Shown: positions 1,543 to 9,525 of the stretch, piece by piece
How the letters are laid out: each line of letters begins with the position of its first letter
How positions within the stretch are numbered: the stretch's first letter is position 1
From: a virus
Taxonomy: Duplodnaviria; Heunggongvirae; Uroviricota; Caudoviricetes
Strand: one strand, 5' to 3'
IMG/VR virus record: IMGVR_UViG_2563366807_000006
DNA: 9,525 nucleotides
Notes under the pieces: generated by a model
Seen by the model: only the letters and a program-made list of their open reading frames with translations
Database searches by the model: none
Told to the model about the DNA's origin: nothing
Program-made: the position numbers and the translations under genes

Positions 1543-4500
1543 ATGGGAAAAGGTGGCGGTAAGGCACACACGCCTCGTGAGGCGAAGGATAATCTCAAAT
1601 CCACGCAGATGATGAGCGTGATTGATGCGATTGGTGAGGGACCGATAGAAGGTCCGGTGAAGGGACTGCAGAGTATCCTGGTGAACAAAACCCCGCTGAC
1701 GGACACGGACGGTAATCCCGTGATACACGGTGTGACGGCGGTCTGGCGCGCCGGGGAGCAGGAGCAGACACCACCGGAAGGCTTTGAGTCCTCCGGTGCT
1801 GAAACCGGACTGGGCGTGGAAGTGACGAAGGCAAAACCGGTGACGCGCACCATTACGTCCGCGAACATTGACCGCCTGCGGGTTACCTTCGGGGTGCAGT
1901 CACTGGTGGAGACCACCTCAAAGGGTGACCGTAACCCGGCATCCGTCCGCCTGCTGATTCAGTTACAGCGTAACGGTAACTGGGTGACAGAAAAGGACGT
2001 CACCATTAACGGCAAGACCACCTCACAGTTCCTGGCCTCGGTGATTCTGGATAATCTGCCTCCCCGGCCCTTTAACATCCGGATGGTCAGGGAGACGGCG
2101 GACAGCACCACGGACCAGCTGCAGAATAAGACGCTGTGGTCGTCATACACCGAAATCATCGATGTGAAACAGTGCTACCCGAACACGGCCATTGTGGGGC
2201 TGCAGGTGGATGCGGAGCAGTTCGGCGGCCAGCAGATGACGGTGAACTACCATATCCGCGGTCGCATCATCCAGGTGCCGTCAAACTATGACCCGGAAAA
2301 ACGCACGTATAGTGGTATCTGGGACGGCAGTCTGAAACCGGCATACAGCAACAACCCGGCCTGGTGCCTGTGGGACATGCTGACTCACCCGCGCTACGGC
2401 ATGGGAAAACGTCTGGGGGCGGCGGATGTGGACAAGTGGGCGCTGTATGCCATCGGGCAGTACTGCGACCAGACGGTCCCGGATGGTTTCGGGGGGACCG
2501 AGCCGCGGATGACCTTTAATGCGTACCTGGCACAACAGCGTAAGGCGTGGGACGTTCTCAGTGATTTCTGCTCTGCGATGCGCTGTATGCCGGTATGGAA
2601 CGGTCAGACGCTGACGTTCGTTCAGGACCGCCCGTCGGATGTGGTGTGGCCGTACACCAACAGCGATGTGGTGGTGGATGATAACGGCGTGGGATTCCGC
2701 TACAGCTTCAGTGCCCTGAAGGACCGGCACACGGCGGTGGAGGTGAATTACACCGACCCGCAGAACGGCTGGCAGACCTCCACGGAACTGGTGGAAGACC
2801 CGGAAGCCATACTGCGCTACGGACGCAACCTGCTGAAGATGGACGCGTTCGGCTGTACCAGCCGCGGTCAGGCCCACCGTGCCGGACTGTGGGTGATAAA
2901 GACCGAACTGCTGGAAACGCAGACGGTGGATTTCACGCTCGGGTCTCAGGGGCTGCGTCACACACCCGGTGACATCATTGAAATCTGTGATAATGACTAT
3001 GCCGGGACCCTGACCGGCGGACGTGTCCTGTCCATCGATGCCGCCAGCCGTACCCTGACGCTGGACCGGGAGGTGACACTGCCGGAGACCGGCACGGCCA
3101 CTGTTAATCTGATTAACGGCAGCGGTAAGCCGGCGAGTGTGGACATCACCGCACACCCCGCGCCGGACCGGATACAGGTCAGTACCCTGCCTGATGGTGT
3201 GGAGACATACGGTGTGTGGGGACTCTCCCTGCCGTCACTGCGTCGTCGCCTGTTCCGCTGTGTCTCCATCCGGGAAAACACGGACGGCACCTTTGCCATC
3301 ACGGCGGTGCAGCACGTACCGGAAAAAGAAGCCATCGTGGATAACGGTGCCCGCTTTGAGCCGCAGTCAGGTTCCCTGAACAGCGTCATCCCACCGGCAG
3401 TGCAGCACCTGACGGTGGAGGTGAGCGCAGCTGACGGCCAGTATCTGGCGCAGGCGAAATGGGACACGCCGCGGGTGGTGAAGGGTGTGCGCTTCAGTCT
3501 GCGCCTGACCAGTGGTAAGGGAACGGATGCCAGACTGGTGACCACCGCCATCACCGCAGACACGGAGCACCGTTTCAGCGGCCTGCCACTGGGGGAATAC
3601 ACCCTGACGGTGCGGGCGATAAACAGCTGCTACGGCATGGGAAAACGTCTGGGGGCGGCGGATGTGGACAAGTGGGCGCTGTATGCCATCGGGCAGTACT
3701 GCGACCAGACGGTCCCGGATGGTTTCGGGGGGACCGAGCCGCGGATGACCTTTAATGCGTACCTGGCACAACAGCGTAAGGCGTGGGACGTTCTCAGTGA
3801 TTTCTGCTCTGCGATGCGCTGTATGCCGGTATGGAACGGCCAGACGCTGACGTTCGTTCAGGACCGTCCGTCGGATGTGGTGTGGCCGTACACCAACAGC
3901 GATGTGGTGGTGGATGATAACGGCGTGGGTTTCCGCTACAGCTTCAGTGCCCTGAAGGACCGGCACACGGCAGTGGAGGTGAATTACACCGACCCGCAGA
4001 ACGGCTGGCAGACCTCCACGGAACTGGTGGAAGACCCGGAAGCCATACTGCGCTACGGACGCAACCTGCTGAAGATGGACGCGTTCGGCTGTACCAGCCG
4101 CGGTCAGGCCCACCGTGCCGGACTGTGGGTGATAAAGACCGAACTGCTGGAAACGCAGACGGTGGATTTCACGCTCGGGTCTCAGGGGCTGCGGCACACA
4201 CCCGGTGACATTATTGAAATCTGTGATAATGACTATGCCGGGACCCTGACCGGCGGACGTGTCCTGTCCATTGATGCTGCCACCCGCACCCTGACGCTGG
4301 ACCGTGAGGTTACCCTGCCGGAGACAGGTACATCGGCGGTGAACCTGATTAACGGCAGCGGTAAGCCGGTGAGTGTGGACATCACCGCACACCCCGCGCC
4401 GGACCGGATACAGGTCAGTACCCTGCCTGATGGTGTGGAGACATACGGGGTGTGGGGACTCTCCCTGCCGTCACTGCGCCGTCGCCTGTTCCGCTGTGTC

Positions 4501-4746
4501 TCCATCCGGGAAAACACGGACGGCACCTTTGCCATCACGGCGGTGCAGCACGTACCGGAAAAAGAAGCCATCGTGGATAACGGTGCCCGCTTTGAGCCGC
4601 AGTCAGGTTCCCTGAACAGCGTCATCCCACCGGCAGTGCAGCACCTGACGGTGGAGGTGAGCGCAGCTGACGGCCAGTATCTGGCGCAGGCGATGTGGTG
4701 GTGGATGATAACGGCGTGGGATTCCGCTACAGCTTCAGTGCCCTGA
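1543..4746 (+). CDS. J: Host specificity protein J (central tail fibre / tail tip), N-terminal portion with an internal tandem duplication; reading frame ends after a frameshifting junction at about 4690-4693
   Basis: ATG 1543 is preceded by GGGGAAGG (RBS). The N-terminus [39 protein letters not shown]... and downstream blocks ([70 protein letters not shown]) are recognisably lambda gpJ-like. The ORF runs 1067 aa; the last 18 codons ([17 protein letters not shown]) are out-of-frame read-through of the third repeat copy. Confidence 0.85.
2393..3628 (+). repeat. J internal repeat unit, copy 1 (complete, 1236 bp = 412 codons)
   Basis: Sequence from GCTACGGCATGGGAAAACG (2393) through ...GCGGGCGATAAACAGCT (3628) recurs starting at 3629 at about 99% identity. 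At protein level it spans [15 protein letters not shown]...[12 protein letters not shown]. Confidence 0.9.
3629..4692 (+). repeat. J internal repeat unit, copy 2 (partial, unit positions 1 to about 1064; in frame with copy 1)
   Basis: Offset of 1236 nt from copy 1. The junction retains an extra in-frame GCT (Cys) codon, giving ...[14 protein letters not shown].... The few nucleotide and amino-acid differences from copy 1 (e.g. AASRTLT vs AATRTLT; [21 protein letters not shown] vs [21 protein letters not shown]) show the copies are not identical. It ends at ...GQYLAQA. Confidence 0.88.
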
Positions 4747-5655
4747 AGGACCGGCACACGGCGGTGGAGGTGAATTACACCGACCCGCAGAACGGCTGGC
4801 AGACCTCCACGGAACTGGTGGAAGACCCGGAAGCCATACTGCGCTACGGACGCAACCTGCTGAAGATGGACGCGTTCGGCTGTACCAGCCGCGGTCAGGC
4901 CCACCGTGCCGGGCTGTGGGTGATAAAGACCGAACTGCTGGAAACGCAGACGGTGGATTTCACGCTCGGGTCACAGGGGCTGCGTCACACACCCGGTGAC
5001 ATCATTGAAATCTGTGATAACGACTATGCCGGGACCATGACCGGCGGACGTGTCCTGTCCATCGATGCCGCCAGCCGTACCCTGACGCTGGACCGGGAGG
5101 TGACACTGCCGGAGACCGGCACGGCCACTGTTAATCTGATTAACGGCAGCGGTAAGCCGGCGAGCGTGGCCATCACCGCACACCCCGCGCCTGACCGGAT
5201 ACAGGTCAGCACCCTGCCGGATGGTGTGGAGACATACGGTGTGTGGGGACTCTCCCTGCCGTCACTGCGTCGTCGCCTGTTCCGCTGTGTCTCCATCCGG
5301 GAAAACACGGACGGCACCTTTGCCATCACGGCGGTGCAGCACGTACCTGAAAAAGAAGCCATCGTGGATAACGGGGCCCGCTTTGAGCCGCAGTCAGGCA
5401 CCCTGAACAGCGTTATCCCACCGGCAGTGCAGCACCTGACGGTGGAGGTGAGCGCAGCTGACGGCCAGTATCTGGCGCAGGCTAAATGGGACACGCCGCG
5501 GGTGGTGAAGGGCGTGCGCTTCAGTCTGCGCCTGACCAGTGGTAAGGGAACGGATGCCAGACTGGTGACCACCGCCATCACCGCAGACACGGAGCACCGT
5601 TTCAGCGGCCTGCCACTGGGGGAATACACCCTGACGGTGCGGGCCATTAACAGCT
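4693..5655 (+). repeat. J internal repeat unit, copy 3 (partial, unit positions about 274-1236; -1 frame relative to the upstream J frame)
   Basis: Begins at ATGTGGTGGTGGATGATAACGGC, corresponding to copy 1 position about 2666, and continues to the unit end (..TVRAINS) before passing directly into the unique J 3' region ([12 protein letters not shown]...). The offset from copy 1 is 2027 nt, which is not a multiple of 3. It carries its own variants (AGTMTGG, ASVAIT, SGTLNSV). Confidence 0.88.
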
Positions 5656-7262
5656 ACGGCCAGCAGGGCGAACCTGCGACCACCACCTTCCGGATTGCCG
5701 CACCGGCAGCACCGTCGCGGATTGAGCTGACGCCGGGGTATTTTCAGATAACGGCGGTCCCGCGTCTTGCGGTGTATGACCCGACGGTACAGTTTGAATT
5801 CTGGTTCTCAGAAAAACGCATCACGAACACGGCACAGGTGGAAAAATCTGCCCGTTATCTGGGGACCGGCAGTCAGTGGACTGTCCAGGGGAGCCGGATT
5901 AAGCCGGGGACGGATTTCTGGTTTTACGTGCGAAGCGTCAACCTGGTGGGAAAATCTGCTTTTGTGGAAGCCAGCGGGCAGCCCAGCAATGATGGTGAAG
6001 GGTATCTGGAAATTTTCCGGGGGCTGATAGATGAGACGCTTCTGGGCCAGGCACTGAAAGAGCGCATTGATGCTTCAGCGCTGCGTACGGAGGTCACGCA
6101 ACTGGAAGAAGACATCCGTCAGCGGATGGACACGGATATCGCAGAAGTGACCCGGAAAATCGGGAAGGCGGAAAACAGCCTCACGCAGCTGGTTGCGAAA
6201 AAGAATGAGGACCAGACACTGGCCATCGCGCAGGTGAGCCAGAAAGTGGACCGGGTGAGCAGTGAAATCTCACAGACTGTCAGCCAGGGGCAGTCAGAAA
6301 ACGCCCGACAGATAGCACAGGTCCGCCAGTACGTGGATAAAAAAGGGAGTGAAATTACCTCGACCACGGATAAAAAGCTGGGTGACCAGGCCGTGACCAT
6401 ACAGCAAATCCAGCGGGTTCAGTCAGACACGCGCAATGAGCTGAATGCCATGTATATGCTGAAGGTGCAGAAAACAAAAAACGGTATTCCCTATGTGGCC
6501 GGGATTGGTGCGGGGATTGAGGATGTTGATGGTCAGACGCTGAGCAGTATTCTGCTGCAGGCGGACCGTATCGCGATGATTACCCCGGAGAATGGCAACA
6601 CCACGCCGCTGTTTGTGGCGCAGGGGAATCAGCTGTTCATGAACGACGTGTTCCTGAAGCGACTGTTTGCGGTGAGCATCACGTCATCCGGCAATCCTCC
6701 TACGTTTTCCCTGACGCCGGATGGCAGGCTGACAGCCCGCAATGCGGATATCAGTGGAGCCATCACGGCGAATACCGGCACGCTCAATAATGTCACCATT
6801 AACGAGAACTGTGTCATCAGAGGGAAACTGTCTGCAAACCAGATTGAAGGCGATCTCGTTAAAACAGTGGGTAAGGCTTTCCCCCGTGACTCCCGTGCAC
6901 CGGAGCGTTGGCCATCAGGAACCATTACCGTCAGGGTTTATGACGATCAGCCGTTTAACCGGCAGATTGTTATTCCGGCGGTGGCTTTCAGCGGTGCCAG
7001 ACATGAGCGGGAGAACAGCGATACTTATTCGTCATGCCGCCTGATAGTACGGAAAAACGGTGCTGAAATTTATAACCGTACCGCGCTGGATAATACGCTG
7101 ATTTACAGTGGTGTTATTGATATGCCTGCTGGTCGCGGCCACATGACGCTGGAGTTTTCTGTATCAGCATGGTGGGTAAATGGCTGGTATCCCACAGCAA
7201 GTATCAGCGATTTGCTGGTTGTTGTGATGAAGAAAGCCACTGCAGGCATCACGATTAGCTGA
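4695..7262 (+). CDS. J: Host specificity protein J, C-terminal portion (repeat copy 3, Fn3-like region, coiled-coil region, C-terminal receptor-binding region), 'cassette A'; probably the downstream half of a frameshifted J rather than an independent gene
   Basis: 855-aa ORF opening at GTG 4695, 2 nt after the copy 2/copy 3 junction, with no strong RBS (only a weak AGG at 4688-4690). Contains [21 protein letters not shown]...[10 protein letters not shown]...[16 protein letters not shown] (Fn3-like), a long heptad-like coiled-coil stretch (about 6040-6450), and a C-terminal block ...[24 protein letters not shown]...[29 protein letters not shown]... ending ..[10 protein letters not shown]; TGA at 7260-7262. 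Confidence 0.8.
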
Positions 7263-7683
7263 ATTTTATAACCCCAATACGGGCGCCAGAAATGGCGCCT
7301 TTTTTATTGCAGAAAAGCGAGAGGTAATTATGCGTAAAGTTTGTGCAGCCATTTTGTCCGCAGCCATCTGTCTGTCCGTATCCGGTGCGCCTGCATGGGC
7401 GTCTGAACATCAGCCCACACTGAGCGCGGGGTATCTTCATGCCCGTACGAACGCTCCCGGCAGCGATAATCTGAACGGGATTAACGTGAAATACCGTTAT
7501 GAGTTTACGGACGCGCTGGGGCTGATTACGTCCTTCAGTTATGCCAATGCTGAGGATGAGCAAAAAACGCACTACAGCGATACCCGCTGGCATGAAGATT
7601 CCGTGCGTAACCGCTGGTTCAGCGTGATGGCGGGGCCGTCTGTACGCGTGAATGAATGGTTCAGCGCGTATGCGATGGTGGGT
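5503..7683 (+). repeat. Segmental duplication unit A (J 3' portion - terminator - lom 5' portion), period about 2181 bp
   Basis: 5503-5750 is near-identical to 7684-7930, and about 6800-7683 is about 90-95% identical to 8760-9525 (the 7281-7307 terminator and lom start recur at 9243-9269 and 9292). The central part is divergent with a net 219-nt length difference. Confidence 0.85.
7281..7307 (+). terminator. Rho-independent terminator downstream of J cassette A
   Basis: GGCGCCA (7282-7288) - GAAA - TGGCGCC (7293-7299) followed by TTTTTTATT. Confidence 0.8.
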
Positions 7684-7689
7684 TGGTGA
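7330..7689 (+). pseudogene. lom: Lom/Ail-family outer membrane protein, 3'-truncated at codon 119 by the duplication junction (lom copy A)
   Basis: RBS GAGAGG 6 nt upstream of ATG 7330. Signal-peptide-like N-terminus MRKVCAAILSAAICLSVSGAPAWA, followed by ...LNGINVKYRYEFTDALG...RNRWFSVMAGP..SAYAM, which matches Lom/Ail beta-barrel proteins as I recall them. Full-length Lom is about 200 aa; here TGA is created at 7687-7689 exactly where J-derived sequence (GTGAAGGGCGTGCGCTTCAGT) begins. Confidence 0.75.
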
Positions 7690-9224
7690 AGGGCGTGCGC
7701 TTCAGTCTGCGCCTGACCAGTGGTAAGGGAACGGATGCCAGACTGGTGACCACCGCCATCACCGCAGACACGGAGCACCGTTTCAGCGGCCTGCCGCTCG
7801 GGGAATACACCCTGACGGTGCGGGCGATAAACAGCTATGGCCAGCAGGGTGAACCTGCCACCACCACCTTCCGGATTGCCGCACCGGCAGCACCGTCGCG
7901 GATTGAGCTGACGCCGGGCTATTTTCAGATAACCGCAACGCCACATCTTGCCGTTTATGACCCGACGGTACAGTTTGAGTTCTGGTTCTCGGAAAAGCGG
8001 ATTGCGGATATCAGGCAGGTTGAAACCGCAGCCCGCTATCTTGGCTCGGCGCTGTACTGGATAGCTGCCAGTATCAATATCAAACCGGGCCATGATTATT
8101 ATTTTTATATCCGCAGTGTGAATACTGTTGGCAAATCGGCATTCGTGGAGGCTGTCGGTCGGGCGAGCGATGATGCGGAAGGTTACCTGGATTTTTTCAA
8201 AGGAGAAATCGGGAAAACACATCTGGCCCAGGAGCTGTGGACGCAGATTGATAACGGTCAGCTTGCGCCGGACCTGGCTGAAATCAGGACGTCCATTACG
8301 AATGTCAGCAATGAAATCACGCAGACCGTCAATAAAAAACTGGAAAATCAGAGTGCGGCAATCCAGCAGATACAGAAAGTTCAGGTTGATACAAATAATA
8401 ACCTGAACAGCATGTGGGCCGTGAAACTGCAGCAGATGCAGGACGGACGCCTTTATATTGCGGGTATCGGTGCCGGTATTGAGAATACGCCAGCAGGAAT
8501 GCAGAGTCAGGTGCTGCTGGCGGCAGACAGGATTGCGATGATTAATCCTGCGAATGGCAACACAAAGCCGATGTTTGTTGGTCAGGGCGATCAGATATTT
8601 ATGAATGAAGTGTTCCTGAAATATCTGACGGCTCCCACCATTACCAGCGGCGGTAATCCTCCGGCATTTTCCCTGACACCGGACGGGCGGCTGACGGCGA
8701 AAAATGCCGATATCAGCGGTAACGTGAATGCGAACTCCGGGACGCTCAACAACGTCACGATTAACGAGAACTGTCGGGTTCTGGGAAAATTGTCCGCGAA
8801 CCAGATTGAAGGCGATCTCGTTAAAACAGTGGGCAAAGCTTTCCCCCGGGACTCCCGTGCACCGGAGCGGTGGCCATCAGGAACCATTACCGTCAGGGTT
8901 TATGACGATCAGCCGTTTGACCGGCAGATTGTTATTCCGGCGGTGGCATTCAGCGGCGCTAAACATGAGAAAGAGCATACTGATATTTACTCCTCATGCC
9001 GTCTGATAGTGCGGAAAAACGGTGCTGAAATTTATAACCGTACCGCGCTGGATAATACGCTGATTTACAGTGGTGTTATTGATATGCCTGCCGGTCACGG
9101 TCACATGACACTGGAGTTTTCGGTGTCAGCATGGCTGGTAAATAACTGGTATCCCACAGCAAGTATCAGCGATTTGCTGGTTGTGGTGATGAAGAAAGCC
9201 ACTGCAGGCATCACGATTAGCTGA
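7656..9224 (+). CDS. J C-terminal paralogue fragment, 'cassette B' (Fn3-like region + shorter coiled-coil + C-terminal receptor-binding region); lacks the J N-terminal domains; silent cassette or remnant
   Basis: 522-aa ORF. The first 11 codons (from ATG 7656) are an alternate-frame read of the lom-A 3' end with no RBS. From about 7684 onward it encodes [62 protein letters not shown]..., near-identical to cassette A and repeat copies 1 and 3. The middle ([92 protein letters not shown]) differs from cassette A and is closer to my recollection of phage lambda J. Ends ..[13 protein letters not shown] at 9222-9224. Confidence 0.7.
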
Positions 9225-9242
9225 ATTTTATAACCCAGATAC

Positions 9243-9269
9243 GGGCGCCAGAAATGGCGCCTTTTTTAT
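9243..9269 (+). terminator. Rho-independent terminator downstream of J cassette B
   Basis: GGCGCCA (9244-9250) - GAAA - TGGCGCC (9255-9261) followed by TTTTTTATT; identical to the 7281-7307 element. Confidence 0.8.
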
Positions 9270-9291
9270 TGCAGAAAAGCGAGAGGTAATT

Positions 9292-9525
9292 ATGCGTAAA
9301 TTATGTGCTGTTATTTTGTCCGCAGTAGTCTGGCAGGTCGCCGCTGCTACGCCAGCGAGTGCAGCAGAACATCAGTCCACGCTGAGCGCGGGGTATCTCC
9401 ATGCCTCGACGAACGTTCCCGGTAGTGATGATCTGAACGGGATTAACGTGAAATACCGTTATGAGTTTACGGACGCGCTGGGGCTGATTACGTCCTTCAG
9501 TTATGCCAATGCTGAGGATGAGCAA
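9292..9525 (+). CDS. lom: Lom/Ail-family outer membrane protein (lom copy B), 3'-partial at window end
   Basis: GAGAGG RBS then ATG 9292. MRKLCAVILSAVVWQVAAATPASAAEHQSTLSAGYLHASTNVPGSDDLNGINVKYRYEFTDALGLITSFSYANAEDEQ..., open to the window end. The signal peptide differs from lom-A while the mature region is near-identical. Confidence 0.85.
   Translation, partial: MRKLCAVILSAVVWQVAAATPASAAEHQSTLSAGYLHASTNVPGSDDLNGINVKYRYEFTDALGLITSFSYANAEDEQ

Follow-up and report, generated by a model that had tools for sequence, protein, structure and literature searches.

The out-of-frame junction that splits the tail gene J at positions 4690-4693 is, in our judgement, very probably a false duplication made when the draft genome of Escherichia coli KTE1 was assembled. 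The window, by which we mean the whole stretch of 9,525 nucleotides that was analyzed, corresponds to positions 8459-17983 of a 23-kb locus (L003) on scaffold KE136575.1 of the KTE1 draft (GCA_000407665.1). Because runs of Ns border it on both sides, with 10 Ns upstream (L003 8449-8458) and 4,690 Ns downstream (L003 17984-22673), the window represents a single contig of a draft scaffold, running from one gap to the next. Its large open reading frames belong throughout to the genes K, I, J or lom, and the features described below lie on the plus strand unless the minus strand is named. Elsewhere, both among phage records and in complete E. coli genomes, these four genes take up approximately 5.3-5.7 kb with J as a single ORF; the intact J genes that we fetched are 3390-3693 nt long, and all listed matches to the 9.5-kb window collapse in 5 to 6 pieces onto one locus of that size.

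The split J is present in the deposited sequence. Self-BLAST aligns 2393-3457 to 3629-4693 (97.7% identity, an offset of 1236 nt or 412 codons), 2663-3628 to 4690-5655 (98.1%) and 3899-4691 to 4690-5482 (95.3%, an offset of 791 nt, which is not a multiple of 3), and the E value of 0 of these repeat matches in J excludes chance. The tetranucleotide GCGA (4690-4693) is common to the end of the second copy, at 4693, and the start of the third copy, at 4690; past this junction the J frame reads a 17-aa frameshift tail and stops at the TGA at 4744-4746. An earlier note on this DNA had given the coordinates of the copies, the GCGA, the 791-nt offset, the stop at 4744-4746 and the GTG at 4695, and all of these agree with the self-BLAST and the list of ORFs. 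The same note had overlooked two further junctions of the same kind (3628/3629 and approximately 7686/7687), the differing prophage haplotypes of the copies and the fact that the window is bounded by gaps.

Two intact loci served as references, the prophage of strain 81009 (L001, reference y), which has a J of 3474 nt and a lom interrupted by ISEc12, and the prophage of strain EBJ003 (L004, reference z), which has a J of 3693 nt. When aligned to them, the window splits into four abutted pieces. The first, P1 (1-3628), corresponds to L001 4340-7966 and is a y/z mosaic that holds K (5'-cut at the contig start and ending at 621), I (618-1199), the spacer between I and J, and J up to two thirds of its length. 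P2 (3629-4693) is internal to J and corresponds to L001 6731-7795 at 99.6% identity. P3 (4690-7686) corresponds to L004 5663-8660 at 99.9% and contains a Z-type J that lacks its first third, followed by the first 119 codons of lom (first copy, 7330-7689), while P4 (7680-9525) corresponds to L001 7811-9655, also at 99.9%, and contains the 3' part of a Y-type J and a second lom start (9292-9525) that runs into the 4,690-N scaffold gap. Two more repeats found by self-BLAST, 5500-5815 with 7680-7996 (93.7%) and 6552-7563 with 8514-9525 (85.6%), indicate that the 3' end of J and the start of lom each occur a second time farther downstream. The J of strain 7/2, which has both y- and z-type parts, was also tried as a single reference and gave a worse fit (98.1-98.5%) than L001 and L004 together.

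Each of the three joins between these pieces is a same-strand back-jump (1236, 791 and approximately 1970 nt, respectively), and Pfam domains are interrupted at all three. Junction 1 (3628/3629) is blunt and in frame; it jumps back 1236 nt, from L001-equivalent 7966 to 6731, and cuts an Ig_J domain at profile position 88/104. Junction 2 (4690-4693) leads from the end of P2 at L001 7795 to the start of P3 at L001-equivalent 7001, an out-of-frame back-jump of 791 nt, and lands at Phage-tail_3 profile position 47/164, which is where the domain match of the following ORF begins. Junction 3 (7683-7687, approximately 7686/7687) jumps back approximately 1970 nt from lom (L004 8660) to the Ig_J domain of J (L001 7811), fusing Lom residue 119 to the middle of that domain; it is essentially blunt at base level, and a 7-nt microhomology suggested by BLAST was not upheld.

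The consequence of the joins can be read in the three J coding parts. ORF1 (1543-4746; 1067 aa) comprises the J N-terminus, the in-frame 412-codon repeat and the frameshift tail, and its Pfam domains are ordered FNIII-A_GpJ, Phage-tail_3, Ig_J (the one cut at 88/104), Phage-tail_3 and Ig_J. ORF2 (4695-7262; 855 aa, GTG start) is the C-terminal part of J, with a truncated Phage-tail_3 followed by Ig_J, Ig_J_second, Phage_Tail_Tip and Ig_GpJ_C. The third ORF (7656-9224; 522 aa) is a Y-type J 3' fragment. All of the J pieces are unmistakably gpJ in sequence; across the three parts the canonical single-ORF order from FNIII-A to Ig_GpJ_C is absent, and Phage-tail_3 and Ig_J are repeated and truncated. 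The 1067-aa product of ORF1 occurs in one public contig only, where it is deposited as EOW94394.1 ('phage tail protein [Escherichia coli KTE1]'), and it is the sole member of its protein cluster.

The two versions of the J 3' part, 5816-6551 and 7997-8513, have no nucleotide similarity to each other that BLAST can detect and differ in length by 219 nt (73 codons); their flanks are 86-94% identical by BLAST, and intact J genes that match either version at 100% identity are present in complete genomes. The divergence, which lies before the receptor-binding end, is natural variation.

Some features of the I-J spacer (1200-1542; 343 nt, non-annotated) are recorded here in their own right. The segment from approximately 1310 to 1560 is invariant in six aligned prophage alleles, and it includes a strong hairpin (1413-1440; -29.9 kcal/mol, z = -5.7), which has an A-run on one side and a T-run on the other and looks from its sequence like a bidirectional terminator. 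On the minus strand, a promoter-like site from 1337 to 1310 (11/12 matches) is followed by a terminator-like hairpin and T7 from 1231 to 1215, and the two could delimit a putative antisense transcript of approximately 100 nt. An Rfam scan that included the spacer gave no family at the gathering score, and the ORF at 1221-1562 has no Pfam or PHROG match.

The content of the window can be accounted for almost completely by the two reference haplotypes. Out of 9,495 31-mers, 9,300 are present in L001 or L004, and the 195 novel ones are confined to the three junctions and to P1, where they mark a few y/z switches at short range. No private state occurs at the variable sites of P1, of P2 or of P3 up to position 5815: P1 is y or z at 132/132 sites, P2 has 40 sites of which the first four are z-type and the next 36 y-type, and P3 has 58, the first two being y-type. 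Where the sequence is present in triplicate, copies 2 and 3 show complementary states at 38/38 sites, and copy 1 alternates between the two. Because the copies carry different haplotypes, the repeats are not fresh in-place duplications and represent distinct alleles, resident or pre-existing. The haplotype is the same on the two sides of junction 2 (y-type, with a switch 73-82 nt past the junction) and on the two sides of junction 3 (z-type, with a switch 8-110 nt past it).

The mosaic in P1 is finer, with at least 15 y/z switches, some of them 4-12 nt apart. Its best match among 5,426 complete E. coli genomes is 98.8% identical, and the 45 mismatches are spread along the whole length. Natural J alleles are y/z mosaics too, and P1 is either a rare natural mosaic allele or a consensus chimera of collapsed paralogues. 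Both types of J can reside in one genome: NZ_CP030768.1 carries an intact Z-type J in a prophage on the potB side and an intact J of the Y-3' type in a prophage on the ompW side, approximately 229 kb apart, and it is the kind of genome that would be expected to confuse a short-read assembler.

Just upstream of the window (L003 7388-8458) the preceding contig stops inside J, in a 354-aa FNIII-A_GpJ fragment, and after the 10 Ns the scaffold resumes inside K; this makes a fourth back-jump, of 2.6 kb, from L001-equivalent 6941 to 4340, which is of the same kind as the joins in the window. When the pieces are de-interleaved, the order of each haplotype is restored. The Z path runs from the upstream contig (L004 1-5603, 99.9%) through P3 (5663-8660) to the sequence after the 4,690 Ns, which continues from L004 8678; on the Y path, P2 ends at L001 7795 and P4 begins at L001 7811. 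The sequence missing at these breaks amounts to only 59 and 17 nt on the Z path and 15 nt on the Y path. In common coordinates the starts of the successive pieces rise steadily (before 4340, 4340, 6731, 7001, 7811, 12383). Ascending starts are what would be expected of overlapping paralogue contigs that could not be merged and were abutted by position, and not of independent natural rearrangements. As to the downstream gap itself, the 4,690 Ns coincide with the ISEc12 interruption of lom in the best Y-type reference (L001 9995-12297), and a repeated IS element is a likely reason for that gap.

The junctions were then looked for in other genomes. The earlier note had asked whether the GCGA junction recurs in related genomes, and we found no recurrence in genome, phage or metagenome collections. 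For all three junctions, the query was built so that only a junction-spanning 28-mer could seed a match; neither the 5,426 complete E. coli genomes nor the 50,697 phage records searched contained one, and the exact 38-mer of junction 2 likewise had no match in IMG/VR, the GTDB representative genomes or the JGI metagenomes. A search of the 59-aa junction peptide against 5.8 billion proteins left the frameshift tail uncovered, a result that carries little weight since the 1067-aa source protein was missed as well; this word-indexed search returned only proteins of 101 aa or less, which makes negatives from short queries weak. Neither the window nor the 10 kb on either side of it contains a recombinase gene, the ORFs with family hits there being tail genes or lom, and no conserved crossover site is present at the joins, which are blunt or share 4 nt.

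We propose the following course of events. KTE1 would carry two or more lambdoid prophages that are, according to the stretch, 85-100% identical in their K-I-J-lom regions; the assembler would have failed to resolve these prophage paralogues, and contig-sized pieces of the different copies, with parts of two or three near-identical J genes, would have been ordered by their shared coordinates and abutted unmerged. The outcome would be the same-strand back-jumps, of which three lie within the contig and one spans the 10-N gap. Such an assembly layout would by itself account for the division of J into two ORFs, its in-frame repeat of 412 codons, the shortened lom and the additional 3' fragment of J. 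We infer that the joins originated in silico or from chimeric library molecules, and not in the cell.

False duplications of the heterotype and homotype kinds have been described close to contig boundaries (PMC8081667), and misassembled prophages in E. coli ST131 genomes have been reported together with a warning on artefactual duplications in phage regions (PMC4134206). The region studied here has the corresponding features: it adjoins gaps, its copies are distinct alleles (95-98% identical), its order is restored by separating the haplotypes, and its junctions are not reproduced in the collections searched. The counterpoint is that no Ns occur at the joins, which are blunt or have 4 nt in common. 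A pure path error in a de Bruijn graph was considered as a sufficient cause and rejected, since it needs a shared k-mer and the joins share at most 4 nt. Joins of this kind, with 0-4 nt shared and no Ns, imply either real junction molecules, whether from a chimeric fragment or from a true rearrangement, or an abutment made during scaffolding or gap closing. The continuity of haplotype across junctions 2 and 3, with a switch soon after, fits a short chimeric molecule or gap closing; it also fits a genuine intramolecular event, and for this reason we keep a small share of our confidence for a real, strain-specific rearrangement. The assembly chimera that the earlier note had offered as an alternative is strongly supported by the interleaved haplotypes, the gap-flanked draft contig and the unique junctions. 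Our search of the literature on KTE1, and on duplication artefacts specific to ALLPATHS, returned nothing.

The KTE1 assembly is one that we take to be Illumina-based and ALLPATHS-style. Within the explanation by assembly, it is possible, without being likely, that the joins derive from chimeric library molecules, for example circularization junctions of a jumping (mate-pair) library that were used where the graph was broken. A circularized fragment read across its ligation point would give same-strand back-jumps such as those of 0.8-2.6 kb seen here, the joins are blunt or nearly so, and the equal haplotypes that flank junctions 2 and 3 give way to the other type only 73-82 nt and 8-110 nt beyond; the implied fragments are, however, smaller than the nominal 3-5 kb jump.

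A genuine rearrangement particular to KTE1, in which illegitimate recombination and gene conversion between lambdoid prophages would have left a decaying prophage with a pseudogenized J, appears unlikely. In its favour, E. coli prophages commonly decay and recombine with one another, illegitimate recombination typically leaves joins that are blunt or share 4 nt, junctions 2 and 3 have one and the same haplotype to their left and right where this can be judged, and the output of an assembler is normally sequence that is present in the reads. Nevertheless, such an origin calls for four or more non-homologous back-jumps within 12 kb, each independent of the others, in addition to several haplotype switches, and all of these must preserve a perfect haplotype order and ascending piece starts; assembly gaps flank the region and one of the back-jumps spans a gap; and none of the junctions occurs in the complete genomes or phage records searched (5,426 and 50,697, respectively). 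We give a still slimmer chance to the junction at 4690-4693 being physically present in KTE1, in the clone or in a subpopulation, in which case part of J would be duplicated in tandem and out of frame. Homologous recombination between the 793-nt repeats could remove this duplication, which would make it an accidental, reversible knock-out of J.

The earlier note had further proposed that a single homologous recombination between copies 2 and 3 would restore an intact J, and that the split could be a revertible ON/OFF state of this host-range gene. The first part holds for the reading frame: the two copies share 793 nt at 95.3% identity, and deletion of 791 nt does restore the frame. It does not hold for the gene, because the 'restored' J would be 4929 nt long (1642 aa) and would keep the 1236-nt (412-aa) duplication that cuts Ig_J, whereas intact J genes are 3390-3693 nt; removal of both extra segments (5720 - 1236 - 791 = 3693 nt) gives exactly the length of the Z-type J. 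A programmed host-range switch, in which RecA-mediated deletion between copies 2 and 3 turns OFF to ON, is extremely improbable and finds no support in these data, since there is no recombinase or conserved site, the junction recurs in no other genome searched, the interleaved copies 2 and 3 differ in haplotype and were thus not duplicated in place, and the other junctions, including the one that joins lom to the middle of J, have no switch logic.

The window can be compared with several known systems. Like the false duplications of draft genomes (PMC8081667), the window has divergent copies in tandem near contig boundaries or gaps, with apparent partial duplications and frameshifts; it differs from them in that the organism is a haploid bacterium, so that the 'haplotypes' are separate prophages, and in that three of the joins contain no Ns. 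It also resembles the misassembled prophages of E. coli NA114, as compared with EC958 (PMC4134206), where similar prophages in one genome led to misplaced or duplicated phage segments, although those cases involve contig misplacement and inversion alleles, and here the partial copies lie head-to-tail inside J. The coding pieces, from FNIII-A_GpJ to Ig_GpJ_C, are those of a lambda-like gpJ and are 99.6-99.9% identical to intact E. coli prophage J, but intact gpJ is a single ORF and here its domain order is broken three times. The likeness to invertible segments of the Gin/Cin/Min type and to shufflons is that a host-range gene would change by DNA rearrangement; those systems have a site-specific recombinase, conserved crossover sites, in-frame inversion of a C-terminal cassette and recurrence, and the window has none of these.

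The J junction is therefore most likely not a biological feature. If it were real, it would be a pseudogenizing rearrangement of a single strain and of modest interest. As it stands, the proteins deposited for this contig, such as EOW94394.1, are chimeric, and they give no evidence for duplication or pseudogenization of J or for a host-range switch. The case also provides a way of recognizing such artefacts from the letters of the sequence by themselves, which is to compare the copies with intact loci, to ask whether they carry complementary haplotypes, and to see whether the natural order returns once they are de-interleaved.
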